The notes: generated by a model from the letters alone, not told the origin. A DNA stretch of 41,078 nt from an uncultured Thiotrichales bacterium (GCA_964621435.1 CAZUMV010000003.1:1-41078); one strand, 5' to 3'; positions 23,978 to 39,421 are shown, counted from the first letter of the stretch. Numbers and translations: made by a program.

Positions 23978-25270
23978 CTACCGGTTTTTGATATCAACGT
24001 AGTCGCGAATTGTTTCGCCTTCATACACCTGTCGTGGACGTCCAATTCTAAACTCGTCATCAGTAAGCATTTCACGCCAATGTGCAATCCAGCCAACAGT
24101 TCTGGCCATGGCGAAAATAACTGTAAACATATCCAGCGGTATGCCGAGGCGTCTAAGAATAATGCCTGAGTAGAAGTCGACGTTAGGATACAGGTTGCGT
24201 TGTTTAAAGTAGTCGTCTTCAAGCGCGATTCGCTCGAGTTCCAAAGCGGTATCGAGCAACGGGCTTGATTCGCCCATCTCGTTAAGCAGCTCGTGGCACA
24301 TATCCCGAATAAGATTGGCGCGCGGATCGAAGTTCTTATAGACGCGATGTCCAAAGCCCATTAGGCGAACTCCGCTATTTTTATCCTTGGCTAACTCAAC
24401 ATAGTCTTGTACCGTTTTGTCCGATTCGGTGATGTCTGTCAGCATACGAATCACTTTCTCGTTAGCGCCGCCATGCGATGGACCCCACAAAGATGAAATA
24501 CCAGCAGAGATAGCGGCATATGGATTAGTTTCCGAGCTACCCGCCAGGCGTACCGTTGAGGTTGAAGCGTTTTGTTCGTGATCAGCATGCAAAATGAGCA
24601 TGAGATCTAACGCTTTAACATGCAGTGGATCTGGAACGTATTCCTCGGTTGGGAAAGCAAACATCATATGCAGATAATTTTCTACATAGCTCAAATCATT
24701 TTTCGGATAGATAAATGGCAGGCCTTGAGAGTGTTTGTAGCTCCATGCCGAAATAGTCGGAATTTTTGCTAACAAACGATAGGTGGCACGCTCTCGTACG
24801 GCGGCGTCATGCACCATACTCGCACTAGGGTAAAAAGACGAAAGCGCACCAACCGAACCAACCAACATCGCCATTGGGTGGGCGTCGTGATTAAAGCCAT
24901 TGATAAAACGTCGCATCCCTTCATGCAAAAGCGTGTGATCAGTAATACTGTGATCAAAATCTGCTTGCTGTTGCGCGCTAGGAAGTTCACCGTGTAGCAG
25001 CAGGTAACAGACTTCGGTAAAGGTGCTTTTTTCGGCTAATTGCTCAATAGGTATACCGCGGTATCTGAGTATGCCTTCGTTGCCGTCGATAAACGTAATG
25101 TCGCTGGCGCAGCTGCAAGTTGCTATAAAGCCCGGATCATAGGTATACATTCCGAGTTCTTTGTGCAGGGTTTTAATGTTGATTCCAGGAGAGCCTTCAG
25201 AGCTTTCCCGGACCGGTAGCTCAACTTGTTTGCCAGTGGCGTTGTCTGTGATGGTAACTGTGCGGCCCAA
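23978..25270 (-). CDS. gltA: Type II citrate synthase
   Basis: 'GFGHRVYKNFDPR' and 'LHADHEQNASTSTVR' are present in a ~430-aa product. The TTG start is preceded by AAGGAG. Confidence 0.93.
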   Translation of the reverse strand: MGRTVTITDNATGKQVELPVRESSEGSPGINIKTLHKELGMYTYDPGFIATCSCASDITFIDGNEGILRYRGIPIEQLAEKSTFTEVCYLLLHGELPSAQQQADFDHSITDHTLLHEGMRRFINGFNHDAHPMAMLVGSVGALSSFYPSASMVHDAAVRERATYRLLAKIPTISAWSYKHSQGLPFIYPKNDLSYVENYLHMMFAFPTEEYVPDPLHVKALDLMLILHADHEQNASTSTVRLAGSSETNPYAAISAGISSLWGPSHGGANEKVIRMLTDITESDKTVQDYVELAKDKNSGVRLMGFGHRVYKNFDPRANLIRDMCHELLNEMGESSPLLDTALELERIALEDDYFKQRNLYPNVDFYSGIILRRLGIPLDMFTVIFAMARTVGWIAHWREMLTDDEFRIGRPRQVYEGETIRDYVDIKNR

Positions 25271-25684
25271 TGTTCTTCTCCTTGATGCTAATTTTTATGC
25301 GGTTGAGTGTGTTTCCAGCCTCGATTAGAACCGGGCATTGTGATCAAATCCGCGATTTTTCTGCAATTCGACTTGGTTTACTTGAACATTTGTATCAAAT
25401 GTTTTGCTAAAAGCGATAACAACGGCTTAATATGAACGCGGCAGTCGCGCAGAACCGATGCCGCATAGTATAGCTCGCGTTGGCGCTTCTCTCTAGTAGA
25501 ATTGAGCTGCTTAAGCGGTAAATACTAGGCATTGTGGTAATAGATTTCCTTCAAGTGCGCTACTTTTACCGCTGATCCAATTTGATCTAGGTAGGAATGT
25601 GAACTGTTTGGCAATATAGGGTTCGTAGAAAGGTCAGTGGCGATTAATACCCGCAGAATGCTTCCTATGTGTACATTTCGGTAA

Positions 25685-26716
25685 ATGAACATCATGTTGA
25701 AAACAATGTTAGCCCTAATATTACTGTCGATATCCGGCGTCGTATCTGCGGCTTGGTATGAAGAAAAGGCCGAGATCATGGGTACGGATATTCGAGTGTA
25801 TTTGTGGCACGACGACGAATCCAAAGGGAAACGGGCAGTCACTGATGTTATGTCCGAATTTCGCCGTATCGATGCTTTGATGAGTACCTATTTGGAGTCG
25901 TCAGAATTGTCGTTAATAAATCGTCGCGCGGCGCACCAACCGGTTGCGGTGTCGGATGAGTTGTTACAGCTGATTATGCAAGCATTAGAGCTGTCAGAGC
26001 GCACTGACGGTGCTTTTGATATTACGTATGCTAGCGTTGGGTATCTTTATGACTATCGAAATGCTGTCCGACCTGATGACGCGACCATCGGCCAACGCCT
26101 TAAAGCGGTAAATTTTCGTCATGTGCGGGTAGATCAGAACAAAAGAACCATTGAATTTAATCATCCGGATGTGCGTATTGATCTCGGTGGTATCGCAAAA
26201 GGTTACGCAGTCGATCGGGCGATCACGAAGTTAACAGGGCTTGCGGTTGAACACGCAATTGTTACTGCCGGTGGTGATACGCGGGTATTGGGTCAGCATC
26301 GTGATCGACCATGGGTGGTCGGTATTCAAGACCCGCGTCTGAATGACAAAGTAGTAGCCTTGATTCCGTTGGTTGATGAGTCCATTTCAACTTCCGGAGA
26401 TTACGAAAGATACTTTGATGATAATGGGATCAGGTACCACCATATCATCGATCCGCAAACCGGCGATTCAGCGAGAGCGGTGCGGAGTGTGTCGATTTTA
26501 GGTGCCACGAGCACTTTGGCTGATGCTTTATCGACAAGTTTGTTTGTGCTTGGACTGGATGATGGTATTGAGGTAATCAATAAGATTGAAGGTTACGAAG
26601 CTATCGTGGTCGACCAGCAGGGAAAGTTGCACTACTCAACCGGGTTACAGCAGCCGGAGAAACCGGAGGGTACGGCAAAACATCAGGTGGGTGGCGTATT
26701 GTCACCGGCCAAATGA
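25685..26716 (+). CDS. apbE: FAD:protein FMN transferase (ApbE family), periplasmic
   Basis: The product has a signal peptide, 'FDITYASVGYLY', 'DLGGIAKGYAVDRA' and 'HIIDPQTG'. Confidence 0.9.
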   Translation: MNIMLKTMLALILLSISGVVSAAWYEEKAEIMGTDIRVYLWHDDESKGKRAVTDVMSEFRRIDALMSTYLESSELSLINRRAAHQPVAVSDELLQLIMQALELSERTDGAFDITYASVGYLYDYRNAVRPDDATIGQRLKAVNFRHVRVDQNKRTIEFNHPDVRIDLGGIAKGYAVDRAITKLTGLAVEHAIVTAGGDTRVLGQHRDRPWVVGIQDPRLNDKVVALIPLVDESISTSGDYERYFDDNGIRYHHIIDPQTGDSARAVRSVSILGATSTLADALSTSLFVLGLDDGIEVINKIEGYEAIVVDQQGKLHYSTGLQQPEKPEGTAKHQVGGVLSPAK

Positions 26717-26728
26717 TTAGAGGTGGTA

Positions 26729-29524
26729 ATGAAAATGCATAAATTTAAATTCACCGTATTGGTATTGTTGCAGATCGGATTGATTGCGTGTACTGCAGGT
26801 GGCAATGACAATGATGATCAAGCGGGCATAGATGGTAGCGGAGTTGAATCCAGCGACCTGGGCAGCGCTAGTTTGGTTAATGCAAATTTCTCGATCGTGT
26901 ATGTTGACCGATCGGTGGAGTCTGCTGGAAATCCTACTGACGGGATACGGTTTACGCCCGGCGGCGATCTGTATATCAAGAGCCTCGCTTCGCCGAGCGC
27001 TGAAGCTTTGAATATTACCGGAGTCTATACCGAAGGTCTTGGTGACGTCTCGGATCCGGAGGTTTCATATGATGGTAGAAGAGTGGTCTTTAGCATGCGC
27101 GGACCCGAAGACGAGACCTGGAATCTGTGGGAGTACGATAGTGACGCCGCAACTATCAGGCGCCTCATTAATAACCCTGATTTAACTGATGAGGGTGATG
27201 ATGTTGATCCTGCGTATTTGCCGGATGGTCGGATTATTTTTAGTTCAAACCGTCAGGAAAAAAGCCAGCGTTTGTTAGCCGCCGAAAACAAAGAGCCGTA
27301 CGCGTATTTAGACGAGTACGAGCGCGAGCGCACGATTGCATTGCATGTTCTCAGCAGGGATGGTGACGAGGTTTCGCAAATCTCGTTTAACCAAAGCCAT
27401 GATCGAAATCCAACAGTATTGAGCAGCGGCGCGATAATGTACGCCCGTTGGGACCACTTGGGTAACCGCAACCATTTTCCACTGTTTTTCACCAATCCTG
27501 ATGGTACCAACTTGTTTGTTCTTTATGGTGCCTTTAGTCCCGGCAACTCATTTTTGCATCCACGCGAAATGCCCGATGGAAAGGTAATATCGTCCTTAAT
27601 GCCACTTTCGGGAACCGGAGAAGGTGGTGCGCTGGTAATCATTGACGTCGAAAATTTTTCGGAAAATGATCAGCCGGCGCCAGGTCATACGGACACGGAA
27701 GTTGGGCAGCTCGGAGCAACCTTGCAAGAGATCCCCATCGATGACACGGCATCCGAGTTTGGTCGGTATACCACGCCGTTCCCGTTGTGGGATGGCACCA
27801 ACCGTGTTTTGGTTTCCTGGTCCGCCGCGCAAGCGCCTGATGAAGATAACCCCATGATGGGCGAAGATGGACCGCCACGCTATGGTATTCATATGCTCAA
27901 TCTCGATGATCAGTCATTACGCCCCATTGAGCTTGCTGCTCCCGGTAGAATTTTAACCGACCCGGTCGCGATGTTTCCACGCGCTTTGCCAAACATCATT
28001 GCAGACACTCCGGGCGACGCTGGTTTGGCCGCAGCGGGTCGAGGTATTCTCAACGTAAAAAGTGTGTATGACACCGATGATCTGGACATTATGGGTGATC
28101 GGGTTTTAATAGCGGGTGAATCGATTCCGGAAATTGACGGCGTGGCAGATGTGTTGTCGCTTAAGCAAGCGCGTGCCAACGATCGTCCGGCACGATTTGT
28201 ACGAGTCACTCGGGCGGTGCCAACACCGCCGGGCGTGACCACAGATAACGTCGGCTCCAATGACATGGAGATGCAGGAACTGCTGGGTTATTCCCGCGTC
28301 GCGCCCGATGGCTCGATTAGAATCGAGGTGCCGGCGGATACGCCACTCGCTTTGACCGTGGTTGATGCCAACGGGCGAGCGTTGCAAACGCACACAAATT
28401 GGCTGCAGGTTCGTCCTGGCGAGACCCGTACCTGTAATGGCTGTCATTCACCTCGACGTGGTAGCGCGATTAATGCCGCGCCGATTGCCGGTGACCATAG
28501 TAATACCGAGTTAGCAGGGGTTGTTGAGCCAGGTGAAAGCATGGCTGAAACTAACACCCGAATTAATCCGTCGGCGCTGAGTTTGACATCGGACATCGAG
28601 TTCGAAGACATATGGACTCTGGCTGCGAACGGGCCGGACCTGCCATTTAGTATTACCTACGCAGACCTATCTACTTTAGCGCCGACTGACGGCATTATTA
28701 ATTACCCGGAACACATCCAGCCGCTTTGGGAGCTGCATAATTGTGTTGGTTGTCATAATGGCGCAGCTGGATCGTTGGATTTAGGTAGCACGACCGCAGC
28801 GACCGGGCGTTTAACATCCTACGAACAACTCACCCTTGGTGAACCTGTTCTGGACGCGCAGGGATTGCCAATAACGTTTACTGTAAATGGCGAAGTGTTG
28901 GTGCAGCGTGAACCCGCTTTGGTTGAAATGGGATCAGCAATTAACAGCTCGCGCACCAGTCATTTAATCGAAAAGCTTTATCAAACAGAGTTGCTGGCGG
29001 ACCGAAGTTTAGCGCCGACGACGGTTAACCATAATGGTATTTTGAATGCGTCAGAACTTCGTTTGTTACAGGAGTGGATAGATCTCGGCGCACAATATTT
29101 CAATAGCCCTTATGAGAGTAATGCGGGCGATGATGGTTTTTATGCGCTTGGCGAGATTCGAAGCTTCCCGGCAGGTCTGAGCGAAGATGTGTTTGCAGAG
29201 AGTGTACAACCGGTGTTGTTGCAGCGTTGCGGTAGTTGTCATGGTGCTGTTGGTGATGATGGTGAGGCGAATGGTGGTTTTTCCGCCAAGCGATTCGTGC
29301 TGACAGGCGCGTTAGAAGGGGATTTCAATATAACCAGAGCAATGGTTAGCAATATTTGTGACGCAGAGAGTTCCCTGTTGTTGACAATGCCCAGTATCAT
29401 TCAGCAGGGAAATATTGCCCATCCGGCGATCAATGGACAACCGGTATTACAGAGTACAGATAATGACTTTCAAACGATTTTTACGTGGATTACAGCGGCA
29501 GCAGCTAGTAACAACTGTCCCTAA
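26729..29524 (+). CDS. Large lipoprotein: TolB/PD40-like beta-propeller N-terminal half plus a C-terminal half with three CXXCH motifs in PSCyt1-like domains
   Basis: The lipobox is 'GLIAC'. PD40-like blades include 'PEVSYDGRRVVFSMRG' and 'PAYLPDGRIIFSSNR'. The motifs are CNGCH (28433-28447), CVGCH (28742-28756) and CGSCH (29228-29242). The last two lie in 'P.L...C..CH ... L...E...L..WI' contexts. Confidence 0.7.
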   Translation: MKMHKFKFTVLVLLQIGLIACTAGGNDNDDQAGIDGSGVESSDLGSASLVNANFSIVYVDRSVESAGNPTDGIRFTPGGDLYIKSLASPSAEALNITGVYTEGLGDVSDPEVSYDGRRVVFSMRGPEDETWNLWEYDSDAATIRRLINNPDLTDEGDDVDPAYLPDGRIIFSSNRQEKSQRLLAAENKEPYAYLDEYERERTIALHVLSRDGDEVSQISFNQSHDRNPTVLSSGAIMYARWDHLGNRNHFPLFFTNPDGTNLFVLYGAFSPGNSFLHPREMPDGKVISSLMPLSGTGEGGALVIIDVENFSENDQPAPGHTDTEVGQLGATLQEIPIDDTASEFGRYTTPFPLWDGTNRVLVSWSAAQAPDEDNPMMGEDGPPRYGIHMLNLDDQSLRPIELAAPGRILTDPVAMFPRALPNIIADTPGDAGLAAAGRGILNVKSVYDTDDLDIMGDRVLIAGESIPEIDGVADVLSLKQARANDRPARFVRVTRAVPTPPGVTTDNVGSNDMEMQELLGYSRVAPDGSIRIEVPADTPLALTVVDANGRALQTHTNWLQVRPGETRTCNGCHSPRRGSAINAAPIAGDHSNTELAGVVEPGESMAETNTRINPSALSLTSDIEFEDIWTLAANGPDLPFSITYADLSTLAPTDGIINYPEHIQPLWELHNCVGCHNGAAGSLDLGSTTAATGRLTSYEQLTLGEPVLDAQGLPITFTVNGEVLVQREPALVEMGSAINSSRTSHLIEKLYQTELLADRSLAPTTVNHNGILNASELRLLQEWIDLGAQYFNSPYESNAGDDGFYALGEIRSFPAGLSEDVFAESVQPVLLQRCGSCHGAVGDDGEANGGFSAKRFVLTGALEGDFNITRAMVSNICDAESSLLLTMPSIIQQGNIAHPAINGQPVLQSTDNDFQTIFTWITAAAASNNCP

Positions 29525-30032
29525 ATTTTTATATGTGATTTGTATCGCTTTTGTGTTGCTCGCTTGTGACCCGGTAGATCCGGTAGGTGAAAATACCGCA
29601 TTCGCCGGACGCAGCTTATGTTTTGAGAACTATCAGTTTTGCATAGATCCGATTTTTCACGCCAATTTACTTGGCAGTGCCGGGAGCGTTAACTGTTCTT
29701 CTAGCGGGTGCCATGATACCAATGCCGGGTCCGGTGGTGGTTTTAAAGTATTTTTATCGCCGGCATTGAATTCAGAAGAAATGCTGTCCAATTTTTATAC
29801 AGCTCAAGCGTTCGCTAACTTTAGCACACCATCTGATTCAAAGCTTTTGCTCGAACCACTTACTGGAACGTTTTCTGTAACAGGTAGTCACGCTGGCGGA
29901 GATATATTATTCAACCGGTCAGATCCTTGTTATTTAGCCATAATCGACTGGATTAATGAGCAGGTAAATGACGAAAACAGCAGTAGTTGTGGGCTATGCA
30001 CGCCGCCAACTCTGAGTGCCTGCGGCTATTAG
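29463..30032 (+). CDS. Small lipoprotein paralogous to the C-terminal domain of the preceding protein (CX4CH variant)
   Basis: The lipobox is 'VLLAC'. 'CSSSGCHDTNAGSGGGFKVF...SKLLLEP...IIDWI' aligns with 'CGSCHGAVGDDGEANGGFSAKRFVL...SSLLLTMP...IFTWI' in the upstream ORF. The start is uncertain, with 29463 ATG preferred. Confidence 0.5.
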   Translation: MTFKRFLRGLQRQQLVTTVPKFLYVICIAFVLLACDPVDPVGENTAFAGRSLCFENYQFCIDPIFHANLLGSAGSVNCSSSGCHDTNAGSGGGFKVFLSPALNSEEMLSNFYTAQAFANFSTPSDSKLLLEPLTGTFSVTGSHAGGDILFNRSDPCYLAIIDWINEQVNDENSSSCGLCTPPTLSACGY

Positions 30033-30083
30033 TCTGCAGTAGATTCAAGTAGAATTGACAGTTATCCAAAGGGACTTGTAGTC

Positions 30084-30836
30084 GTGATAAAAACTTGCCC
30101 GCGAGCATCAATTCTACTAATTGCGTTGTTATTCTGTGCTGACGGCTCTATTGCCGCGGACACACAGCTATTGCGCGTGCAAGTTACCGAACCGTATCTG
30201 GAGATGTACACGGGTCCAGGCCGGGGTTTTCCGGTGTTCCATGCAGTTGAGCGAGGCGCCTGGGTAGAAATTGTAAAGCGGCGAACAGATTGGTTTGAAG
30301 TTCGGACAAGACGCGGCAAAACTGGTTGGGTAAAACGTAGTGCACTTGAAAAAACCCGGTCAATGACTGGTTCACAATTGGTTTTTGATGGCGCCGGAAA
30401 AGGAGATTTATTCGGCCGGCCTCTGGAAATAGGGTTGGTCGGCGGCGCTTTGGAAAGTGATCCTTTGTTAGGTGCGCGGCTTGGGTATTATCTGACCGAA
30501 AGCATTTCGGTAGAACTCGTACTGAATCATGTGCCGGGAAAGTTTTCGCGCTCAATAATTTATGGCGGAAATATACAAGTACATCCGTGGCCGCAATGGC
30601 GCATATCGCCATATTTTTCATTGGGGTCAGGGGTTATTAGAAATGAGCCGAAAGCAACTTTGGTTGGTGTGAACAATGTTGATGCGACAGTTTGGAGTGC
30701 GGCCGCCGGTGCGCGTTATCGAATCAATGAAAAATTCATGTTTCGGGTTGAGGTTCGGGATCACCAGGCATTGGTAAATGACGCTAATACGCAGAACCTG
30801 CTGGAGATAACGGCCGGGTTTTCGTTTTTTTATTAG
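30084..30836 (+). CDS. Outer-membrane beta-barrel protein with an N-terminal bacterial SH3 domain
   Basis: A signal peptide is followed by the SH3b-like 'LEMYTGPGRGFPVFHAVERGAWVEIVKRRTDWFEVRTRRGKTGWVKRSAL'. Alternating amphipathic strands follow, ending in 'AGFSFFY' with an aromatic C-terminus. Confidence 0.62.
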   Translation: MIKTCPRASILLIALLFCADGSIAADTQLLRVQVTEPYLEMYTGPGRGFPVFHAVERGAWVEIVKRRTDWFEVRTRRGKTGWVKRSALEKTRSMTGSQLVFDGAGKGDLFGRPLEIGLVGGALESDPLLGARLGYYLTESISVELVLNHVPGKFSRSIIYGGNIQVHPWPQWRISPYFSLGSGVIRNEPKATLVGVNNVDATVWSAAAGARYRINEKFMFRVEVRDHQALVNDANTQNLLEITAGFSFFY

Positions 30837-30837
30837 G

Positions 30838-31494
30838 ATGATGGGAATGATTAATAACACAATAAAAATAATTTTGATCGTAGCTGGCTTTTCGCTAAGT
30901 AGCGTGCCCGCCGCTGAAGAAGTCGAAGACTCGCTTGCCGATGTTGAGCAGGTGGTAGTGCCGGAGGTTTACCGGCGCACGGTGAAAGCGCCAAAAATAG
31001 ATGCGCGAGACTTTGAGTTGACTTTATATGGTGGCGTGCTTGGTATGGAAAATTTTAGCTCCAGTCCGGTTGGTGGCGTGCGGCTGGCATATCATATTAC
31101 CGAAGATTTTTTCCTCGAGGCCGGGGTCGCGGCTTCGACAATCAACGATGAAGCGTTTCGACAATTCGGCTTGAATTTGTTTCCTGCAGAAGATGAAAGT
31201 CTGATTTATTATGATCTGGCGGTTGGCTATAACGTGCTCCCGGGTGAATTCTTTTGGGGCGAGAACTATGCAATTCCAACTCATCTGTACGTTATTGCAG
31301 GGGTAGGGAGTATCACTATTGTTGATGAAGATTTTTTTAGTGTTAATTTCGGCGCCGGGGTGCGCATGTTAGTAAGTGAGCGTTTCACCTTGCACCTTGA
31401 TGTACGTGACCGGATTTTTGAAAATACCCTGTTGGGTAGTGAGGACCTTACCAATAATCTTGAATTAACTGTTGGTGTTGGATTGCAATTTTAG
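30838..31494 (+). CDS. Small outer-membrane beta-barrel protein
   Basis: The product has a signal peptide and alternating hydrophobic strands, and it ends 'LTVGVGLQF'. It starts 1 nt after the upstream stop. Confidence 0.58.
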   Translation: MMGMINNTIKIILIVAGFSLSSVPAAEEVEDSLADVEQVVVPEVYRRTVKAPKIDARDFELTLYGGVLGMENFSSSPVGGVRLAYHITEDFFLEAGVAASTINDEAFRQFGLNLFPAEDESLIYYDLAVGYNVLPGEFFWGENYAIPTHLYVIAGVGSITIVDEDFFSVNFGAGVRMLVSERFTLHLDVRDRIFENTLLGSEDLTNNLELTVGVGLQF

Positions 31495-31505
31495 GAAGCT
31501 ATTAT

Positions 31506-32018
31506 ATGAGTCTTATAAGCAAACGCGTTGTAGTACTAATGTGCTTGTTGGCACTGCCGGCCTTGGCGGTTGGTAAATCAAGCATCGTAGGAAAAACTGC
31601 TCCGAATTTCAGGGCGCTTGGCCTGGATGGGTTTGGCTACAGTCTCGATCAATTTCAAGGCAAGGTTATTATGTTGAACTTCTGGGCGAGTTGGTGTGGT
31701 CCGTGTCGACAAGAAATGCCACCGCTGGAGAATCTTTATCGACAGTACCGTGGTCTCGGGTTTGTGGTTGTGGGGGTTAATGTCGATGAAACTCTAGAGC
31801 CAGCAAAGAAAATGATCGCCAAGCTTGCCGTTAGTTATCCAAACCTTTACGACAGTGATAAAAACATTAGTCGGGGTTATAACGTCAGCACGATGCCAAT
31901 GACGGTGATTATTGATGGCACGGGTAAAGTTCGTTATGTGCATCATGGCTATAAGTCGGGTTATATGGAAAAGTATCAGCGCGAGGTGCGTCAACTTTTA
32001 GCGGAGCTGGGTCGATGA
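31506..32018 (+). CDS. Periplasmic TlpA/ResA-like thiol:disulfide oxidoreductase
   Basis: The product has a signal peptide, and the active site is 'FWASWCGPCRQEMP' (WCGPC at 31692-31706). Confidence 0.85.
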   Translation: MSLISKRVVVLMCLLALPALAVGKSSIVGKTAPNFRALGLDGFGYSLDQFQGKVIMLNFWASWCGPCRQEMPPLENLYRQYRGLGFVVVGVNVDETLEPAKKMIAKLAVSYPNLYDSDKNISRGYNVSTMPMTVIIDGTGKVRYVHHGYKSGYMEKYQREVRQLLAELGR

Positions 32019-32251
32019 AAAATTTAGCAGTATTACTCTCAATATTACTTATGACTGGTTGTAGCAGCATCGAAAAGGTGCTTTCTCCAGAGCCCTGGGT
32101 TCCGCCCTATGAGCGCGGTGAGCTAGCTCAGCCAATCATGCAGTTTAGCCGCAACCCGTTGTCGGATAAATTTCGTCAGCATGTTTTAGATACCCGCGAA
32201 GGGGCTCGAGGTGCAACCGTGACTAAAGGTGGTGGGTGTGGTTGTAATTAG
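32015..32251 (+). CDS. DUF4266-like small lipoprotein ending in GGGCGCN
   Basis: The lipobox is 'LMTGCSS' and the product is 78 aa. 'PWVPPYERGELA' and the C-terminal 'KGGGCGCN' match my recollection of the DUF4266 family. The start overlaps the TlpA stop. Confidence 0.72.
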   Translation: MKNLAVLLSILLMTGCSSIEKVLSPEPWVPPYERGELAQPIMQFSRNPLSDKFRQHVLDTREGARGATVTKGGGCGCN

Positions 32252-33332
32252 TCGTTTAATGGTTGTTGTGATGCTGGTAATAGTCGGGCAGGCCGGAGCT
32301 GAAACTCTGCCAGAAGACCGGATCCAGGTTATGTACCACAGTTATGATGGTGGCGGGGTTACCGTTGACGGTCCGGCTGTTTTAGTGCGCAAAGAGCTTA
32401 AAGATCAATATTCCGTGAACGTGGGCTATTACCGGGACTCTATTAGTGGTGCCTCACCGGATGTAATCGCTACCGCGAGCCCGTACACTGAAAATCGCGA
32501 TGAGTTATCAATTGGTCTCGACGCGCTCCTGGGTAGCAGCTTGGTGTCGCTTACCTACATTAAAAGCGAAGAAAACGATTACGATGGCAATACCGTGCAG
32601 TTCGGAATTTCACAAAGCTTCTTTTCCCAGATGAGCACCTTGAGTCTAGGCTACTCGGTCGGCAATGACACGGTTGAACGAGTGGATAATGATTTTTCCG
32701 AAGATCTTAAGCGCTATCAATTTAGTGTCGGTTTAACGCAAGTTTTAACCAGCACCATGTTAATGAATCTAAGTGTCGAGGGTATTACTGACGAAGGATT
32801 TTTGAGCAATCCGTATCGCTCTGTTCGTATATTTGGTTCTTTCGCCGGGCCTGAGGTTTACCCCGATACTAGAACGAGCGCGGCGTATGCGATTCGGGTT
32901 AAGAAACTATTGTGGGGCGATGATGTCGTAACACTGGGTTACCGTTTCTATGACGACAGTTGGAGTATCACCGCGCATACCGGTGAAGTTGGCTTCACTC
33001 GAACCATGTCGGATCGATTGGTGCTCGATCTGGATTACCGTTTTTACGATCAATCCAGCGCGTCATTCTTCAGTAGCGATTTTCAAGGTTTGTTTCGCTT
33101 CATGGCCAGCGATAAAGAGCTGAGTTCATATCAGAGTCATACCGTGGGACTTGGTCTCACTTATGAGCTTTTTAACAATTATTTTTATGGTTTTGACCGT
33201 GGTGAGCTGGGCTTAACATATGATTTCAGGATCAATGAATATGATAACTACTTCGCACCGAACGCTAGTACTTCGGAGCTGTACGAGTTTGACGCAAATG
33301 TTTTCAATATTAACCTCTCGTTGTTTTACTAA
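32229..33332 (+). CDS. DUF3570-like predicted outer-membrane beta-barrel protein carrying an ApbE-type flavinylation motif
   Basis: A signal peptide is followed by 'IQVMYHSYDGGGVTVDGPAVLV', then beta-rich sequence ending 'INLSLFY'. The motif D-S-I-S-G-A-S lies at 32436-32456. The start is uncertain, either GTG 32229 or ATG 32259. Confidence 0.68.
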   Translation: MVGVVVISRLMVVVMLVIVGQAGAETLPEDRIQVMYHSYDGGGVTVDGPAVLVRKELKDQYSVNVGYYRDSISGASPDVIATASPYTENRDELSIGLDALLGSSLVSLTYIKSEENDYDGNTVQFGISQSFFSQMSTLSLGYSVGNDTVERVDNDFSEDLKRYQFSVGLTQVLTSTMLMNLSVEGITDEGFLSNPYRSVRIFGSFAGPEVYPDTRTSAAYAIRVKKLLWGDDVVTLGYRFYDDSWSITAHTGEVGFTRTMSDRLVLDLDYRFYDQSSASFFSSDFQGLFRFMASDKELSSYQSHTVGLGLTYELFNNYFYGFDRGELGLTYDFRINEYDNYFAPNASTSELYEFDANVFNINLSLFY

Positions 33333-33361
33333 CGAGATACGGAAATACGGAGATTTCAAAA

Positions 33362-34105
33362 ATGGTTGGCGTTAAAAAACCACTGATAATTTTATTCACA
33401 CTTTGTTTTTCGGCCGTTGTGTTTGCCGCTGAAGGCGAATCAACGACGACCGACATCGGTGATGAGGATAGTTCTTACACTATATTCGAAGGTGATACCG
33501 AGAGCTTGCGAGATGGCGAGTTAACAGCAGAGGGCGAGGCTGCGCTGCGCGAAGCACAAGCTAATGATGCCAATCAAACTACCTCAACCTTGCGTCCCGC
33601 AGAAAGTGATATCGGGCAGCCGAGTCAGGTTGATCTTGATAATGCCGACGAGCTATTAGCGGCGCAAGGTCTGGATGCAAATATTCAGTCATTGAAAGAA
33701 GAAGTTCTCGTGTTGAATCGTGAGCTCTTTTCGTTAGAAGAGGAATTGCTGTTCCCCTCGAACACCCAGTTTGCGGTATACGTGTCCATTGATGTGGGTG
33801 AATTTTTTGATATGGAATCGGTACGGGTTATTCTGGACAATAAGCCGGTTGCAAGCTATCTCTACACCAAGCGTGAGTCAGATGCGTTAATGCGGGGTGG
33901 AGTGCATCGTATTTACATGGGCAACCTGACGGCCGGATCGCACGAGTTGGTAGCGTACTATACCGGTCGCGGACCGCGCGGCCGCGATTTCAAGCGTGCC
34001 ACCAAACGTACCGTTAATAAAGAAATTGGCCCTAAATATGTCGAGCTCAAAATTTCTGATCGCGCTGGAAAAAAGCAATCCGAATTTATAGTTAAAGAGT
34101 GGTAG
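33362..34105 (+). CDS. Secreted protein with acidic N-terminal region, coiled coil and beta-rich C-terminal domain; unknown function
   Basis: GGAG lies 9 nt upstream of the start, and the signal peptide ends 'VVFA-AEG'. A heptad-like stretch 'IQSLKEEVLVLNRELFSLEEELL' is present. Confidence 0.55.
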   Translation: MVGVKKPLIILFTLCFSAVVFAAEGESTTTDIGDEDSSYTIFEGDTESLRDGELTAEGEAALREAQANDANQTTSTLRPAESDIGQPSQVDLDNADELLAAQGLDANIQSLKEEVLVLNRELFSLEEELLFPSNTQFAVYVSIDVGEFFDMESVRVILDNKPVASYLYTKRESDALMRGGVHRIYMGNLTAGSHELVAYYTGRGPRGRDFKRATKRTVNKEIGPKYVELKISDRAGKKQSEFIVKEW

Positions 34106-34129
34106 CGATCTAATCGTCGCCCGATTCCC

Positions 34130-36031
34130 ATGAGAACTTTCCAATCCATCGCTTTGCTCGTGTGCTTATTAAGCGTGAGCGCCTGGCAAGTTGTCTCGGC
34201 GGAGGCGAGCGAAGGAGATATTATTCGAGATCTCCCGTATGGAGAAGTGTTGTTCGATTTTTACCAGCAAAATTATTTTTTGTCGTTGGTGAATTTGATC
34301 AAAGCGCAAAATGACAATAGCGTGCCGCAGCACGCCGGTGAGGCCGAACTACTGCGCGGAGGTTTATACTTATCCTATGGTATGCGCACTCGCGCCGAAA
34401 ACATTTTCGAACAAGTGCTGGCAACCGAACAAAGTCCGGAAGTGAAGAATCGTGCTTATTATTATCTGGCGCGAATAGCCTACCAACGGGGGTTACTCGA
34501 TGATGCCTTGCTAAATTTGGCGAAAATTCGTGGCGATCTGCCGCAAACACTACGTGGTCGAGATGCACTCATGGCAGCGATTATAGAGATCAAACAAGAA
34601 AAGTATCGTGATGCTTTTACTCGTTTAGATGGCTGGCAAGGTGAAGCGGATATCCGTCACTATGTTGCTTATAACAAGGGCATCGCTGCATTGCGCCTGG
34701 GGCAAACTGACACCGGTACTGATTTGCTGGACTTGTTGGGGCGCGAAAACTTTCGCTCCGAGGAAACCGAACTACTGGCGCTTAAGGATCGGGCAAACCT
34801 TGCGATCGGGTTACATTTTTTGCGCCAGGATAGTGCGTCAGAGGCAAAACCATTTCTGGATCGGGTGCGACTGTCAGGTCCCTATTCTAGCAAGGCCTTG
34901 TTAGCGGCGGGTTGGTCGGATGCCCGTAATGAGTTTTACCAGCCCGCGTTAATTCCCTGGAACGAGTTAGCGGGGCGCAATTTGCTTGATCCGGCGGTGC
35001 AAGAATCTTTATTCGCGATACCGTATGCGCTTGCCAATGCTGGCGGTCTAAAGCAAGCTGCAGAAGCTTATCAAGATGCGCTCGATGTTTTCAAACAAGA
35101 GAAGGCAAACTTGATAGCGGCTATCGAGGGGCTAGAAGATAGTAACTATCTCGAGGTGTTATTGAGTAGCGCGCAAGATATTGAACTGGGTTGGTTCAGA
35201 GAATTGCAGGTCGTGGAAGACGCACCACACCCGTGGTATCTCGATGAGCTACTAGCTTCACACCGCGTCCAAGAATCCTTGAAGAATTATCGAGATCTGT
35301 TGTTTCTGGATCTTAACCTTAAAACGTGGGAAGAATCGATGGATTCTTTCACTAATATGGTCGAATTGCGCCGCGAAAAGCACGCCGCCGTGGCGCCGCG
35401 TGCACAGGCAGTGCTGCAAGCGGGTGAGCAAAATAATCTCCAGAATAAATTTGCCAAGCTCAGCGAAGTATATTTAAGTGCCGACGAAAAACAAAAACTG
35501 CGCTTGCTGGCAACACCAGCAGAGCTCGAGAAGCTACAGCGCATGGATAAATTGCAGACCATGATCGCGGCACATCCTAATGCTAAAGCGCACGACTATC
35601 TGCTCCGCCGGGTAGATTTTTTAAAAGGGATTTTGTTTTGGGAAATTTACAATACGCTCGATAATCGCAGCCAACGTTCTGGTAAAGAGCTGGCCGCTTT
35701 GGAGGCCGAGTTCGAGCAAAGTCGCGACTTTATAGACAGTATCAATAATTTGTTGCGCGAATTGCCAAATGGTTTTTCCGGTTTTGCTGAAAAAATACAA
35801 TCCAAGCGCGCGGGTATTGGTGCTACCAGAGTCAAGGTTGATCAGGTTTTGGCGGAACAAAAAGGACAGCTAACACAGCGTATCGTGGCGGAGTTGCAAG
35901 GGCATAAAAAGCGCATAGAAGAATTACAAATTCAGGCGGCTTTTGCGCTGGCGCAGATTTATGATAAAGATAGCGAAAAAGAACCGGATGAACAGGAAGA
36001 GCAACCACGCAACCGCGGGGTCGCGAGATGA
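34130..36031 (+). CDS. Periplasmic TPR-like / coiled-coil protein (633 aa); unknown function
   Basis: The signal peptide ends 'VVSA-EAS'. TPR-like helical repeats include 'AELLRGGLYLSYGMRTRAENIFEQVL' and 'YYLARIAYQRGLLDDAL'. The C-terminal region is a long coiled coil. Confidence 0.6.
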   Translation: MRTFQSIALLVCLLSVSAWQVVSAEASEGDIIRDLPYGEVLFDFYQQNYFLSLVNLIKAQNDNSVPQHAGEAELLRGGLYLSYGMRTRAENIFEQVLATEQSPEVKNRAYYYLARIAYQRGLLDDALLNLAKIRGDLPQTLRGRDALMAAIIEIKQEKYRDAFTRLDGWQGEADIRHYVAYNKGIAALRLGQTDTGTDLLDLLGRENFRSEETELLALKDRANLAIGLHFLRQDSASEAKPFLDRVRLSGPYSSKALLAAGWSDARNEFYQPALIPWNELAGRNLLDPAVQESLFAIPYALANAGGLKQAAEAYQDALDVFKQEKANLIAAIEGLEDSNYLEVLLSSAQDIELGWFRELQVVEDAPHPWYLDELLASHRVQESLKNYRDLLFLDLNLKTWEESMDSFTNMVELRREKHAAVAPRAQAVLQAGEQNNLQNKFAKLSEVYLSADEKQKLRLLATPAELEKLQRMDKLQTMIAAHPNAKAHDYLLRRVDFLKGILFWEIYNTLDNRSQRSGKELAALEAEFEQSRDFIDSINNLLRELPNGFSGFAEKIQSKRAGIGATRVKVDQVLAEQKGQLTQRIVAELQGHKKRIEELQIQAAFALAQIYDKDSEKEPDEQEEQPRNRGVAR

Positions 36032-38808
36032 CTATTAAGTTAAATCTCAAACAAATCTTTGTGCCGGTGTTACCGTTGGTTTTAATGGGGTGTGCGTTCG
36101 AAAAAGGTGACCGGGCGGCAACTTTAAGCGACTTGTATGACCGACCGATTCCGATAATCGATGAGCAGCCAATGGCGAAAAGCCTGGAGTTGGCGGAGCA
36201 GTCTTATCGTCAGATGCTTGATCTGGATTCGAGTTCGGAGATGCGGCCCGAAGCATTGCGGCGTTTGGCTGATATTGTCTCCGACGTTGATAACATCATA
36301 AATGACAACGACGAAGTTGATCAAGAAGCACTCACAGCGGCGACCGAGCTGTATCAAGAGGCGCTGGATGATTATCCAAAGTACCGTTCTCGTGATCATA
36401 TTCTCTATCAACTTGCACGAATCCAGGACCAGAATGGCAAGCCCGACGAGTCGTATTTGCTGTTGGATGAATTAATAAGTAAACATCCCGACTCGGAATT
36501 TTTTCAAGAAGCGCAGTTTCGTCGTGCCGAATATTTGTTTATTGAAAAAGAATATGAGCAAGCGCAAACCGCCTATGCAGCGGTAATCGCCACAGACGCG
36601 GATGAGAAATTTATTGAGCCAGCCATATACAAAAAGGGTTGGTCATTGTTTAAGCAAAATGAATACGAGCTGGCAGTAAACGAGTTTACTACCCTGTTGG
36701 ATGAACGTGTTGTTGAAGGCGCACGGGATCTTGAAAAACTGTCGCGGGCTGAACGGGAACGTATTGATGATTCTCTGCGCGGAATTAGTTTGAGTTTTGT
36801 CTATCAGGAAGGTGTTGATTCGGCGTTGGCGTATTTCGACAAACGTGGTGCCCGTAAATACGAAGATCTTGTTTATACCCATCTGGCTGAATATTACATC
36901 GACAAAGAGCGTTTTACCGATGGTGCGGATACCTTTGCTGGATTCTTGTACCGCAATCCTTGGCATGAGAATGCTGCCGATTTTCAAGCGCGACGCATTG
37001 CGACTTTGAAAAAAGGCGATTTTCCCAGCCTTGAGTTAGAGGCGCGGAAAGAATTTGTTGCCTTGTTTGATGTCGACTCAGAGTATTGGGAATACTATCC
37101 GGTCGCGGACAATCAGCATATTGTCGACGAAGTAAAGATCCACGTGGTCGATTTGGCCAACCATTATCAGTCCTTGGCGCAGGTCGATAATAAAACTGAA
37201 AATTATCAGGAAGCCGAAGTTTGGTATAAGCGCTTTCTAACGTCATTTCCGAAAGATGAAAAGGCGCCGGAGATCAATTATTTATTGGCCGAGTCCTACT
37301 ATCAAAACGGGCGCTTCCGTGATTCTGCGAAAGCCTATGAAGCAGTGGCTTATGACTATGATGCCCATCCAAAATCTGCCGAAGCCGGTTATGCAGCGTT
37401 ACTTGCCTATCAGCAGGTCATTGATGCTAACGCGGGTGACGATGCGGCTGCCAGCGGTAAAGAATTCACCGCAAGTGCAGTGCAGTTCGAAAAAGCATTT
37501 CCCAAGCACCCAAAGGCCAATCAGGTTTTGGTGAGCGTCGCACAAAACCAGTTTGATCAACGTAATTATGATGAAGCGATGGCGCTGGCTGAACGGTTAA
37601 TCGAAAAACAACCACCAACCGGCGAAGCCGAAAGGGGTGTCGCCTGGACCATTCTAGCCAACTCCAATTTTGAGCAAGATGCATTTGTGGCGGCGGAAAA
37701 GGCCTATGTCGAAGCGTTAGCCTTGGTACCGGCTGGTGATGTATTGCGCAACGACTTAACCGAAAACCTCTCAATTGCGGTTTATCGACAAGCAGAGCAA
37801 GCCAAAGAAAAAGGTGATACGGCAGGTGCTATTGCAGCATTCTTGCGGGTCAATGAAGTTGCCCCGGGTACCGAGGTAGCGGTAACCGCGCAATATGATG
37901 CCGCTGCATTATATATCGCTGATGCCAAATGGCAGCCGGCAATTCCGATTTTAGAGCGGTTCCGAGCGTCCTATCCGAGCCATGAGCTGCAAAAGGAAGT
38001 CGATAAAAATTTGGCCACTGCCTACTTGAAAACGAATCAACCAACCAAGGCGGCGGCAGAGTTCCAGCGTCTGGCGGTGTCAGGCGAGTCCGCGGAAATC
38101 CGTCGAGAAGCGATTTTGCAGGCATCTGATTTATATGCTGATGGAGGTGATCAAAATCGTTCCATCGCGATGCTGGAACAATTCGTTCAGGATTTTCCGT
38201 CGCCAGCGGAGCCGGCCATGGAAGCGGCGGCAAAGTTAGCGACACATTATGAACGGTTGTTTGGTGTGGAAGGTGCCTATACCTGGCACGAAAAAGTTGT
38301 GGCGCTTAATCCTGGAAGTGGTGGTAATGATCGAACGCGCTTCTTGGCGGCGAAATCCAGCCTTTCGCTCGTAAAACCATCGGTTGAGGCTTATCAACGG
38401 GTACAGCTTGTGACACCATTGAAAGAGACCTTGCGCGAGAAAAAGCAATTAATGGAAGCGGCATTAGATAAATATGCAGAGTTATCGGCCTACGGAATTG
38501 CCGAGATTTCAACCGAGGCCGCCTATCAAACCGGTTTTATCTATGATGATTTCGCCGAAGCCATTATGGATTCGGAGCGCCCGGCCGAGCTTGATGCGGA
38601 CGCCTTGGAAGAATATGAAATCTTGCTTGAAGAGCAGGCGGATCCATTTCTTGAAAAAGCCATCGATGCGCATGAGGTCAATGTTGGTCGCATTAATCAG
38701 GATGTCTACGATGAATGGGTTAAGCGCAGCTTGGTTGATCTGCAAGCGCTGCTGCCGGCCCGTTACAATAAACAGGAGCGCATCAATGCTGTTACGCGTA
38801 TTCATTAG
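36028..38808 (+). CDS. Large TPR-repeat lipoprotein (926 aa), YbgF/BamD-like repeats
   Basis: The lipobox is 'VLMGC'. There are many TPR units, for example 'ILYQLARIQDQNGKPDESYLLLDELISKHPDSEF' and 'INYLLAESYYQNGRFRDSAKAYEAV'. The start overlaps the upstream stop. Confidence 0.7.
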   Translation: MTIKLNLKQIFVPVLPLVLMGCAFEKGDRAATLSDLYDRPIPIIDEQPMAKSLELAEQSYRQMLDLDSSSEMRPEALRRLADIVSDVDNIINDNDEVDQEALTAATELYQEALDDYPKYRSRDHILYQLARIQDQNGKPDESYLLLDELISKHPDSEFFQEAQFRRAEYLFIEKEYEQAQTAYAAVIATDADEKFIEPAIYKKGWSLFKQNEYELAVNEFTTLLDERVVEGARDLEKLSRAERERIDDSLRGISLSFVYQEGVDSALAYFDKRGARKYEDLVYTHLAEYYIDKERFTDGADTFAGFLYRNPWHENAADFQARRIATLKKGDFPSLELEARKEFVALFDVDSEYWEYYPVADNQHIVDEVKIHVVDLANHYQSLAQVDNKTENYQEAEVWYKRFLTSFPKDEKAPEINYLLAESYYQNGRFRDSAKAYEAVAYDYDAHPKSAEAGYAALLAYQQVIDANAGDDAAASGKEFTASAVQFEKAFPKHPKANQVLVSVAQNQFDQRNYDEAMALAERLIEKQPPTGEAERGVAWTILANSNFEQDAFVAAEKAYVEALALVPAGDVLRNDLTENLSIAVYRQAEQAKEKGDTAGAIAAFLRVNEVAPGTEVAVTAQYDAAALYIADAKWQPAIPILERFRASYPSHELQKEVDKNLATAYLKTNQPTKAAAEFQRLAVSGESAEIRREAILQASDLYADGGDQNRSIAMLEQFVQDFPSPAEPAMEAAAKLATHYERLFGVEGAYTWHEKVVALNPGSGGNDRTRFLAAKSSLSLVKPSVEAYQRVQLVTPLKETLREKKQLMEAALDKYAELSAYGIAEISTEAAYQTGFIYDDFAEAIMDSERPAELDADALEEYEILLEEQADPFLEKAIDAHEVNVGRINQDVYDEWVKRSLVDLQALLPARYNKQERINAVTRIH

Positions 38809-39421
38809 AGCGCTGGCTGTTTTGTTGCTGATCTTGCTGAGCGCATGTGCGGGCGGGCCGGGCTCCGGTGGTTCAAGTGGTAAAGAAAGCTCGGTAAAGA
38901 TACCTACAGGGCAAAAATCTGCAATGGTTGATGAGGCCGAGTTATCGGCTGCTGACCAAATTGCATTGCAACGTGCAGTGGCAGCCCTTAATGCGGCTGA
39001 TTTTTCCGGTGCTATCGCTGAATTTAAAGGCTTGTCATTACGAAACCCGAAACTCGCTATGCCTTATATCAATCTTGCCATCGCCTATCGTGGCCAAAAC
39101 GATACCGATGCGGCCATGCGGTCGGTAATACAGGCATTGAATTTGTCGCCGAATAGTCCCGAAGCACACAATTTACAAGGCGTACTGTGGCGAGATACTG
39201 GCGAATTTACTAAAGCTAGAGATAGTTATGCCAAGGCCCTCGGTGCAAATGGAGACTGGCCTGATGCGCAGCTAAATCTTGGCATTTTATGTGACTTGTA
39301 TTTACAAGATCTGGCTTGTGCAAAAAAGCATTATGAAGCCTATCTGGATTTATCGGATGAGGAAGATCGCAAAGTGAAAGGTTGGCTGATCGAACTGGAG
39401 CGCAGGATGAAGAAAAAATGA
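38786..39421 (+). CDS. Small TPR lipoprotein (211 aa)
   Basis: ATG 38786 has GGAG 8 nt upstream, and the lipobox is 'LLSAC'. TPR units include 'YINLAIAYRGQNDTDAAMRSVIQALNLSPNSPEAHNLQGVLWRDTGEF'. Confidence 0.7.
   Translation: MLLRVFIRALAVLLLILLSACAGGPGSGGSSGKESSVKIPTGQKSAMVDEAELSAADQIALQRAVAALNAADFSGAIAEFKGLSLRNPKLAMPYINLAIAYRGQNDTDAAMRSVIQALNLSPNSPEAHNLQGVLWRDTGEFTKARDSYAKALGANGDWPDAQLNLGILCDLYLQDLACAKKHYEAYLDLSDEEDRKVKGWLIELERRMKKK

Follow-up and report, generated by a model that had tools for sequence, protein, structure and literature searches.

Positions 25685 to 33332 of a 41,078-nucleotide stretch of DNA from an uncultured Thiotrichales bacterium (GCA_964621435.1, CAZUMV010000003.1:1-41078; this whole stretch is called the window below, and all coordinates refer to it) encode an ApbE-type flavin transferase, a lipoprotein related to the α subunit of hydrazine synthase (HzsA-like), a small paralogue of its C-terminal part, two small outer-membrane (OM) β-barrels, a thioredoxin of the TlpA type, a DUF4266 lipoprotein and a DUF3570 protein. 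An earlier note on this DNA had stated that ApbE, thioredoxin-like, DUF4266 and DUF3570 genes form a compact module, and considered the four envelope genes which separate apbE from the other three as an insertion. The question raised by the locus is whether these eight genes make up a pathway of their own or are part of something larger. The answer proposed here, with a probability of about 0.55, is that they encode an OM-anchored redox assembly which would be the accessory end of a proton-motive-force-driven, Glt-like trans-envelope machine encoded directly downstream.

The module does exist and is known from the literature: in 2021, Méheust et al. (eLife, PMC8238504) described clusters in which ApbE and DUF3570 genes stand with thioredoxin-like genes and DUF4266 ones, 227 with DsbD and 316 without it. 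They noted DUF4266 as a secreted CXC protein, left the function of the clusters open, and made no mention of tetratricopeptide repeat (TPR), ExbB or hydrazine-synthase-like neighbours (PMC8238504).

An operon that continues beyond the eight genes

Open reading frame (ORF) reading and profile searches confirmed the eight genes as described: they are intact and co-oriented on the + strand, with intergenic spacings of -62 to +51 nt and several 4-nt overlaps. The right-hand boundary drawn at 33332 in the earlier note could not be kept, because it cuts a longer operon which runs without a break to the end of the window through a gene called g247 and homologues of the Glt and Agl proteins (GltC, GltD, GltE, AglR and AglQ), all of which had been missed. 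A consensus scan of 25000-41078 on both strands found 21 terminator-like sites, compared to 17.3 ± 4.3 in shuffles; this count is no higher than in the shuffles and therefore gives no argument for an internal terminator. On the other side, the divergent intergenic region at 25271-25684, between a citrate synthase gene (-) and apbE (+), is presumed to be the promoter region of the long + operon. The same citrate synthase/ApbE junction recurs in the closest relative (L167).

A six-gene block and a mobile ApbE

Before any survey was made, the gene order was found to be common to five close relatives of the 933-aa HzsA-like protein, including an Oxalobacteraceae (Betaproteobacteria) genome and Agaribacter, and it is also present in the complete genome of Thioalkalivibrio sulfidiphilus HL-EbGr7, according to precomputed Pfam labels. 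Three surveys were anchored on GltD, DUF3570 and the HzsA-like protein, each comprising the 80 closest loci out of more than 430-600 matches. The contigs came from one genome per species, and the loci, with flanks of about 10 kb, were annotated through iterative hidden Markov model searches, in which the window proteins were run against every stop-to-stop ORF.

All 55 DUF3570-centred loci with at least 6.5 kb of upstream sequence encode the HzsA-like protein and both small barrels (the one with an SH3 domain and the one without), 54 encode DUF4266 and 46 TlpA. Seen from the other end, the 63 HzsA-centred loci with at least 4.5 kb of downstream sequence all contain both small barrels, and nearly all contain the small paralogue (61), TlpA (62), DUF4266 (60) and DUF3570 (61). 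None of the relatives examined has the compact ApbE-TlpA-DUF4266-DUF3570 order without the four intervening genes. The neighbourhood survey proposed in the earlier note has a divided outcome: the haem and barrel proteins do belong with DUF3570 and DUF4266, as synteny strongly indicates, and in this clade the genes supposed to be inserted are invariant, while ApbE is the variable one. In at least 45 of 68 HzsA-centred loci its gene is immediately upstream of the HzsA-like gene; in three loci (L047, L058, L069) it directly follows DUF3570, in L245 it comes after DUF3570 with a LemA/M48 pair in between, and in most DUF3570-centred loci there is no ApbE within ±10 kb. The conserved unit is HzsA-like–(small paralogue)–SH3/OMP–OMP–TlpA–DUF4266–DUF3570, and ApbE is a movable gene.

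This order returns in practically all of the relatives looked at and is kept at 33-72% protein identity across Gamma- and Betaproteobacteria, and the eight genes very probably form one functional unit. A reduced form is found in two Pseudomonadales metagenome-assembled genomes (MAGs), L002 and L218, which have the order HzsA-like–SH3/OMP–OMP–TlpA–g247–Glt core and lack ApbE, the small paralogue, DUF4266 and DUF3570. The L002 variant lies directly 3' of the type II secretion genes gspK-L-M-N.

The downstream genes and the Glt core complex

The first gene after the block (33362-34105, +) encodes g247, which is secreted, acidic in its N-terminal part and conserved in a C-terminal domain of about 145 aa. 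It belongs to no known family: searches against Pfam and NCBIfam, and with a profile against PDB sequences, returned no match. The next genes were compared with those of Thioalkalivibrio HL-EbGr7 (CP001339.1, L006), whose equivalents encode 620, 922, 190, 91 and 222 aa. They encode a GltC-like periplasmic TPR protein (34130-36031, +; 303 bits with the 620-aa gene product), a GltD-like TPR lipoprotein with the lipobox LMGC (36028-38808, +; 625 bits with the 922-aa product, and TPR hits), a GltE-like TPR lipoprotein of 211 aa with the lipobox LLSAC (38786-39421, +; 95.5 bits with the 190-aa product, and Pfam TPR matches), a small secreted protein recognized as an ORF with a signal peptide (39418-39792, +), an AglR-like MotA/TolQ/ExbB proton channel (39831-40472, +; PF01618, 95.6 bits) and an AglQ-like ExbD/TolR protein (40479-41030, +; PF02472, 57.5 bits).

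In Table S3 of Luciano et al. 2011 (PMC3169522), Tgr7_0543 (620 aa), Tgr7_0542 (922), Tgr7_0541 (190) and Tgr7_0539 (222) are the homologues of GltC, GltD, GltE and AglR, whose M. xanthus counterparts are MXAN_2541, MXAN_4870, MXAN_4869 and MXAN_6862; Tgr7_0538, Tgr7_0537 and Tgr7_0536 are the homologues of AglQ, AglS and GltG. The L006 genes were equated with these by length and order, and for homology with the proteins of M. xanthus we rely on that report (PMC3169522). The AglR-like window protein, counterpart of Tgr7_0539, scores 35 bits against the L006 gene, which is cut at the end of that locus. Five of the seven core homologues (GltC, GltD, GltE, AglR and AglQ) lie within the window; in the relatives the core ends with a second ExbD (AglS-like) and then a TonB_C protein (GltG-like), which here would be beyond the window end. 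By these sequence matches, the genes of 34130-41030 are orthologues of the listed Thioalkalivibrio genes and represent the "core complex" which Gammaproteobacteria share with the Myxococcus Agl-Glt machinery; clusters of its genes are known from Gammaproteobacteria, from one betaproteobacterium, and from Geobacter and Fibrobacter (PMC3169522). According to an account of 2020, the original function of this core is unknown and it is "possibly sufficient for protein secretion". The small secreted protein at 39418-39792 is the counterpart of what has been called the "additional gene" in the gammaproteobacterial core: a conserved ORF cluster occupies the same position, between the GltE-like and AglR-like genes, in 59 loci, and the 91-aa gene of L006 is skipped in Table S3 (PMC3169522).

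Linkage between the redox genes and the core

The two gene sets are closely associated in the surveyed clade. Where the downstream flank of an HzsA-centred locus measures at least 8 kb (59 loci), g247 and the GltC-like and GltD-like genes are present without exception, in the tandem geometry of the window (architecture A). Among the 53 GltD-centred loci with at least 9.4 kb of upstream sequence, g247 is present in 51, TlpA in 45, the HzsA-like gene in 31 and ApbE in 18; g247 is nearly always directly upstream of the GltC-like gene. The geometry varies. The three loci with ApbE 3' of DUF3570 are tandem, four are convergent (L132, L151, L153, L161), and about 25 Steroidobacteraceae-type loci are divergent, with the HzsA-like gene pointing away from a triad of cytochrome genes which is followed by TlpA-g247-core. 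In L245, a genome of 3.6 Mb, the arrangement is tandem with the interposed pair: triad(-) ⇄ HzsA-like–SH3–OMP–TlpA–DUF4266–DUF3570 → M48(-) LemA(-) → ApbE–TlpA2–g176–GltC–GltD–GltE. No overlap between GltD-centred and DUF3570-centred loci was found that joins the divergent architecture physically. The linkage occurs in many gammaproteobacterial orders, in Burkholderiales and on one contig binned as Methylomirabilis.

The triad is not part of the window. In about 80 of the first 166 loci (e.g., L005 3911-9333 (-), L015 1308-6710 (+), L245 1-5057 (-)) it either lies divergently beside the HzsA-like gene or comes before TlpA-g247-core. Its first protein (410-430 aa) has one CXXCH and a weak similarity to PSD2/PSCyt3, the second is a lipoprotein of 820-910 aa with a Laminin_G_3 domain and two CXXCH, and the third (530-550 aa) carries a Tat signal. 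The triad is a further sign of extracytoplasmic redox chemistry in this neighbourhood. When g247, the small genes and two of the triad proteins were searched against Pfam at E≤10, only noise-level matches were obtained. Parts of the supercluster were also seen on contigs binned as Candidatus Methylomirabilis (L125), a Rhodospirillales MAG (L098), a Gemmatimonadota MAG (L062) and a Desulfuromonadales MAG (L074), which could reflect horizontal transfer or mis-binning.

The main alternative, a narrower reading in line with the earlier note, is that ApbE, DUF3570 and the haem and barrel proteins constitute a self-contained electron-transfer pathway, and that the Glt-like genes merely share its transcript. 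It draws on the 42 of 60 DUF3570-centred loci which have no Glt core within 10 kb downstream, and on the DUF3570 modules of other phyla, which are compact and associated with DsbD rather than with Glt genes (PMC8238504). Many of these unlinked cases are, however, limited by the 10-kb flank, which may explain part of them, and L245 shows how a link can be hidden. The presence of g247 and of the GltC-like and GltD-like genes in every HzsA-centred locus with enough flank also argues against independence, as does the occurrence of at least one of the HzsA-like, ApbE and TlpA genes upstream in 48 of the 53 GltD-centred loci, and tandem, convergent and divergent adjacency would be hard to explain without selection for linkage. 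A self-contained pathway is rather improbable, although it is the strongest of the competing explanations. Since the neighbourhood is kept through rearrangements, at the identities given above and in two classes, functional coupling can be argued, and the evidence leans, by a modest degree, towards the eight genes working together with the Glt-like core.

The HzsA-like lipoprotein and its small paralogue

The HzsA-like gene (26723-29524, +; ATG at 26735 is likely the real start) encodes a 933-aa OM lipoprotein with the lipobox LIAC, a β-propeller (PD40, TolB-like), an HZS_alpha domain (PF18582, 73 bits) and three CXXCH motifs. The first motif (aa 571) is in the HZS_alpha middle domain, the second (aa 674) in a C-terminal haem domain and the third (aa 836) in an extra module. 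A phmmer search aligns the protein with 5c2v_A (E 4e-13), including the CXXCH of the middle domain, and this chain is also the top Foldseek match of the AlphaFold2 (AF2) model (pLDDT 81.5; E 7e-32, TMt 0.65, 871 columns); the next fold in rank is that of TolB propellers (E 2e-12). The model strongly supports the assignment of the protein as a lipid-anchored, full-length structural homologue of hydrazine synthase (HZS) α. Among 190 homologues, the lipobox Cys is found in 185, the first and second CXXCH in all 190 and the third in 133, so the sequences strongly support two invariant c-haem motifs and one optional motif.

The third CXXCH module is accordingly absent in 57 of the 190 proteins, and a subgroup of 1050-1096 aa has extra Big_9/cadherin-like domains (PF17963, PF17892); P0084, P0093, P0101, P0102, P0106, P0109 and P0114 are homologues listed for this variation.

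The protein is not a literal hydrazine synthase. In the HZS structure, haem αI is ligated by a Tyr, and the residue of the HzsA-like protein which aligns with it is an Arg. The score against NF052339, the equivalog model of hydrazine synthase α, is 71 bits for a cutoff of 800, and genes for the β and γ subunits were not found in the window. For HZS_alpha-domain proteins other than those of anammox bacteria, no function has been confirmed by experiment (PMC12758564). Assignment as a JDVT-CTERM protein was rejected as well, on the basis of the C-terminus (…SNNCP) with neither a transmembrane helix nor an Arg cluster; proteins of that type, which are homologous over their full length, adjoin DUF4266, DUF3570 and TlpA genes in a few species (Haft, bioRxiv 10.1101/2023.06.07.544157).

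The small lipoprotein of 189 aa (29463-30032, +; the true start is the ATG at 29463, not the TTG at 29415 of the mechanical ORF) aligns with aa ~810-933 of the HzsA-like protein, that is, with its C-terminal module. A CX4CH motif replaces CXXCH and is found in 92 of 96 homologues.

The thioredoxin and the small barrels

The thioredoxin expected by the earlier note is present (31506-32018, +), and its type differs from that of the published module: it is a TlpA/ResA/CcmG-like periplasmic thiol:disulfide reductase with WCGPC and an N-terminal hydrophobic segment, which matches Redoxin (97.6 bits), AhpC-TSA (93.7 bits) and Thioredoxin_8, and not PF13899. It scores 114.8 bits with the ResA model NF002854 and 64 bits with the DsbE model, and all specific equivalog models remain below their cutoffs. 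WCGPC is conserved in 151 of 201 homologues. The assignment as a periplasmic thioredoxin of the reducing type is strongly supported.

In the GltD-centred survey, 45 of 53 loci have TlpA directly upstream of g247, which makes this the most constant upstream pair. TlpA is also kept in L002 and L218, which lack DUF4266 and DUF3570; therefore it is not simply a partner of DUF3570. Some loci (L144, L160, L148 and L245) encode two TlpA paralogues, the first as part of the DUF3570 block and the second immediately before g247 (at 9273-9791 and 15139-15654 in L245); the window has one TlpA.

These observations bear on the second, competing role raised in the earlier note, in which TlpA would be a dedicated ResA/CcmG-like reductase and not a partner of DUF4266 and DUF3570. 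The CXXCH and CX4CH cysteines, and others, in the HzsA-like protein and in the small paralogue would be kept reduced by it so that haem can be attached. The class to which TlpA belongs, its retention next to the HzsA-like gene in L002 and L218, and the unusual CX4CH site, which might need a special helper, all fit this role. On the other hand, 9 of 55 blocks contain the HzsA-like protein, DUF4266 and DUF3570 with no detected TlpA, several of the GltD-centred loci with TlpA beside g247 have no cytochrome gene detected in the flank, and L144, L160 and L245 have one TlpA per module. Furthermore, general Ccm systems normally serve all c-type cytochromes. An exclusive role in apocytochrome reduction is unlikely; that role and one in an electron relay are compatible with each other.

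The two small barrels are paralogues (25% identity, E 5e-7). The first (30084-30836, +) combines an N-terminal SH3 domain with a small OmpA-like β-barrel (SH3_4 38, SH3_3 32 and OMP_b-brl 31 bits). The second (30838-31494, +) is a full member of TIGR04565, "OMP_myx_plus" (132.7 bits for a cutoff of 60; OMP_b-brl 37.9 bits). In Myxococcus, GltB and GltA are paralogous OmpA-like barrels; they bind to one another as well as to GltC, and their genes immediately precede gltC (PMC4488436). The window likewise encodes two paralogous small OmpA-like barrels upstream of the gltC-like gene. By analogy, and with the membership in TIGR04565 as a second lead, they are candidate counterparts of the GltA/GltB pair (MXAN_2540 and MXAN_2539). 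No relevant publication was found that relates TIGR04565 to GltA or GltB.

ApbE, DUF3570 and DUF4266

The transferase encoded at 25685-26716 (+) matches PF02424 over profile positions 1-265 of 266 with 280 bits (cutoff 25.6), has a type I signal peptide, read from the sequence, and contains no Cys. Against NF007774, the equivalog model for the E. coli protein, it scores 132 bits for a cutoff of 498, and is thus a family member and not an ApbE equivalog. Its identity as a periplasmic flavin adenine dinucleotide:protein flavin mononucleotide (FMN) transferase is strongly supported.

DUF3570 (32229-33332, +; PF12094, 136.6 bits for a cutoff of 25) is an OM β-barrel of ~16-18 strands with two tandem ApbE-type sites, D70-S-I-S-G-A-S76 and D78-V-I-A-T-A-S84. 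The first is a perfect S-G-A-S with D at -6, and the second is A-T-A-S, also with D at -6. In 99 sequences of the clade the consensus is D70-x-[IV]-[ST]-[SG]-A75-S76-x-D78-V79-x-[TAS]-[TS]-A83-S84, which fits the ApbE type Dxx[ST]xA[ST]; D70, A75, S76, D78, V79 and S84 are invariant, A83 is found in 95 of 99, and the C-terminal residue is aromatic in 98 of 99. An AF2 model built with 80 sequences (pLDDT 91.8, pTM 0.84) is all-β with ~17 long strands, and the flavinylation motif lies between strands 3 and 4. Foldseek matches are OM barrels only, and the highest TM-scores go to two 16-stranded ones, the PelB barrel 9h80_M and the barrel 4y25 of a polysaccharide secretin. Together, model and alignment strongly support an OM barrel with two conserved tandem sites. 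Counting the strands back from the C-terminal β-signal would place the FMN loop on a periplasmic turn or rim. The DUF3570 protein of Chlorobium luteolum has been shown experimentally to be flavinylated by its own ApbE at two [S/T]GA[S/T] motifs (PMC8238504), and homology to it strongly supports the window protein as a probable ApbE substrate.

Seventeen loci have ApbE, TlpA, g247 and the core without DUF3570, and the motif D..[ST][GSA]A[ST] gave no conserved site in them, only two isolated matches in unassigned ORFs. In the Woeseiaceae loci of this kind, the motif is missing because the DUF3570 block is beyond the flank, as in L245.

DUF4266 (32015-32251, +; PF14086, 75.5 bits) has the lipobox LMTGC and ends with GGGCGCN. 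All 161 homologues carry the CXC within their last 8 residues, and the assignment as an OM lipoprotein with an invariant C-terminal Cys-Gly-Cys is strongly supported. Woycechowsky and Raines are said to have found in 2003 that a Cys-Gly-Cys peptide disulfide has a potential like that of protein disulfide isomerase. A role of the tail as a tethered thiol shuttle would fit such a property.

A barrel next to ExbB/ExbD-type genes also suggests another possibility, TonB-type uptake: DUF3570 would be a channel energised by ExbB, ExbD and TonB_C, and the flavin and haems would reduce a cargo (e.g., a ferric chelate or another oxidised metal) on import. The downstream genes are of the required types (MotA/ExbB, two ExbD and a TonB_C protein), DUF3570 resembles the FadL, OmpG, PelB and TonB-dependent transporter barrels in structure, and VIT1 iron transporters occur in 25 DUF3570 clusters, for which iron assimilation has been proposed (PMC8238504). 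However, DUF3570 lacks a plug domain, inspection by eye revealed no TonB box, and the window contains no iron transporter, siderophore gene or Fur-type context. In addition, the TonB-like genes are specific orthologues of AglRQS/GltG rather than of uptake systems, and L002 and L218 do without the DUF3570 barrel. Uptake of this type has little in its favour.

Proposed role

The preferred reading remains that of an OM-anchored redox assembly which serves a Glt-like machine. Chance adjacency or hitch-hiking of unrelated envelope genes is hardly credible, given an order kept at such identities in Gamma- and Betaproteobacteria and rearrangements that preserve the neighbourhood.

A working scheme can be outlined. 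A thiol pool, maintained by a CcdA or DsbD encoded elsewhere, would be the source of electrons for TlpA, which would pass them to the Cys-Gly-Cys tail of DUF4266 and from there to the FMNs on the turn of the DUF3570 barrel. These would reduce the haems of the HzsA-like lipoprotein and of its small CX4CH paralogue, where a substrate would be converted on one of the two faces of the OM, inner or outer; the electrons might also flow in the reverse direction. The small barrels and the GltC-like protein would dock the redox proteins to the TPR scaffold, and the AglRQS/GltG-like motor might power a conformational or surface-exposure step, by analogy with the Glt-dependent surface exposure of the lipoprotein CglB in Myxococcus. 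This specific electron path is tentative.

Several points weigh against the preferred reading, in addition to the DUF3570 loci without a nearby core. The survey frequencies apply to this clade rather than to DUF3570 or GltD genes in general, and 5 of the 53 GltD-centred loci have none of the HzsA-like, ApbE and TlpA genes upstream. As L002 and L218 lack ApbE, DUF4266 and DUF3570, the flavin branch is dispensable for the function of the rest, and TlpA accompanies g247 and the core no less faithfully than it does DUF3570. The strict [S/T]GA[S/T] motif is found in only 20% of the DUF3570 proteins of the clade, most of which have S-S-A-S and T-T-A-S, and the odd number of strands assigned by DSSP in the model (17) leaves the side of the FMN loop ambiguous. 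Neither DsbD nor CcdA was found in the 41-kb window among gene-like ORFs of at least 150 aa, a scan which left out only ORFs nested in or overlapping longer genes. Luciano et al. 2011 place GltA and GltB only in Myxococcales and Bdellovibrio (PMC3169522). Finally, the direction of electron flow, the substrate and the side of the OM in the above scheme are guesses.

A bolder proposal is that the widespread proteobacterial core complex, from which the gliding and spore-coat motors of Myxococcus evolved, was originally an energised OM redox machine, in which the motor and TPR scaffold would position, gate or surface-expose the HzsA-like haem lipoprotein, itself fed from the periplasmic thiol pool via the flavinylated barrel and the Cys-Gly-Cys lipoprotein. 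This is doubtful at present; if true, it would add a new class of device for electron transfer across the envelope and show which function was ancestral in the Glt family.

Independently of the mechanism, two systems that were described separately, the ApbE/DUF3570 module (2021) and the Glt core (2011), share one conserved neighbourhood of at most ~30 kb in this clade, which also holds a lipid-anchored relative of hydrazine synthase α. The Glt core complex gains a first concrete candidate partner, and DUF3570 gains a location, the OM barrel, and candidate redox partners, the haem proteins. Among the publications searched, none was found that links the redox module with a Glt-like core. The basic module was already published; what is new here is a module expanded to include the HzsA-like protein, and the finding that it is systematically associated with the Glt-like core. 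These ideas are testable in cultivable non-gliders: Thioalkalivibrio, Litoribacillus, Ideonella, Panacagrimonas, Alcanivorax, Porticoccus and Gilvimarinus.

Other genes of the window

The window has a GC content of ~48%. Its start cuts an HtpG (Hsp90) gene (104-1060, +), which is followed by a gene for a 322-aa protein with an adenylate/guanylate cyclase domain fused to an FHA domain (1199-2167, +). A secreted protein of 963 aa (5409-8300, +) has weak hits to GH5 cellulase and dockerin-type repeats, and a Pro/Glu-rich linker. This protein, the GC content and the citrate synthase synteny with L167 together point to a gammaproteobacterium that degrades marine polysaccharides or is Thiotrichales-like. 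The prfB gene (8478-9545, +) contains at 8510-8525 the exact canonical programmed +1 frameshift site of release factor 2, AGGGGGTATCTTTGAC, made of a Shine-Dalgarno-like element, a spacer and CTT TGA C; because of this site, the mechanical ORF begins at an internal TTG. On the - strand, 11475-13992 encodes an ExeA/GspA-like AAA ATPase (575 aa, with a C-terminal peptidoglycan-binding domain) and then a GspB-like protein with a T2SSB domain, which are type II secretion accessory genes unrelated to the redox module.

Comparison with known systems

Among the closest published counterparts are the "DsbD systems" of Méheust et al., in which ApbE, a DUF3570 with two flavinylation sites (candidate sites in the window), a DUF4266 CXC lipoprotein and a thioredoxin-fold protein are also encoded together. 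The window differs from them in having no DsbD (PF02683), a thioredoxin of the TlpA/Redoxin type instead of PF13899, and an ApbE which is not adjacent to DUF3570; it adds the HzsA-like lipoprotein, the CX4CH paralogue and two barrels, and its module is fused to a Glt-like operon.

With the core complex of Luciano et al., the window shares the order GltC-GltD-GltE-x-AglR-AglQ-(AglS-GltG) and the extra small gene (PMC3169522). In Myxococcus, this complex serves the Agl-Glt gliding and Agl-Nfs spore-coat machineries, and the report does not count g247, TlpA or the redox genes upstream among the members of the unit (PMC3169522). Unlike in the Myxococcus machinery, no gliding component, cytoplasmic AglZ or MglA, or CglB adhesin is seen here.

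Hydrazine synthase α from Kuenenia stuttgartiensis (5C2V, chain A) has in common with the window protein the β-propeller, the CXXCH haem of the middle domain and the C-terminal c-haem domain, and the region of its EWIDLGAQ motif aligns. The window protein differs by its lipid anchor, its third haem module and the aerobic or facultative proteobacterial hosts in which such proteins occur.

The likeness to porin-cytochrome conduits across the OM (MtrCAB, PioAB) is confined to the working principle, in which an OM barrel is encoded together with a lipoprotein cytochrome of the OM and with redox partners in the periplasm. In contrast to these conduits, the window has no deca- or dodecahaem protein, the FMN would be bound covalently to the barrel itself, the input would be thiols, and there is no sequence relationship.

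Tol-Pal and TonB-ExbBD systems share with the locus the MotA/ExbB, ExbD/TolR and TonB_C types, TPR proteins, a TolB-like PD40 propeller and OmpA-like OM proteins. The gene set and its order are nevertheless different: the propeller is fused to haem domains, and Pal, TolA and a TonB-dependent transporter have no counterpart.

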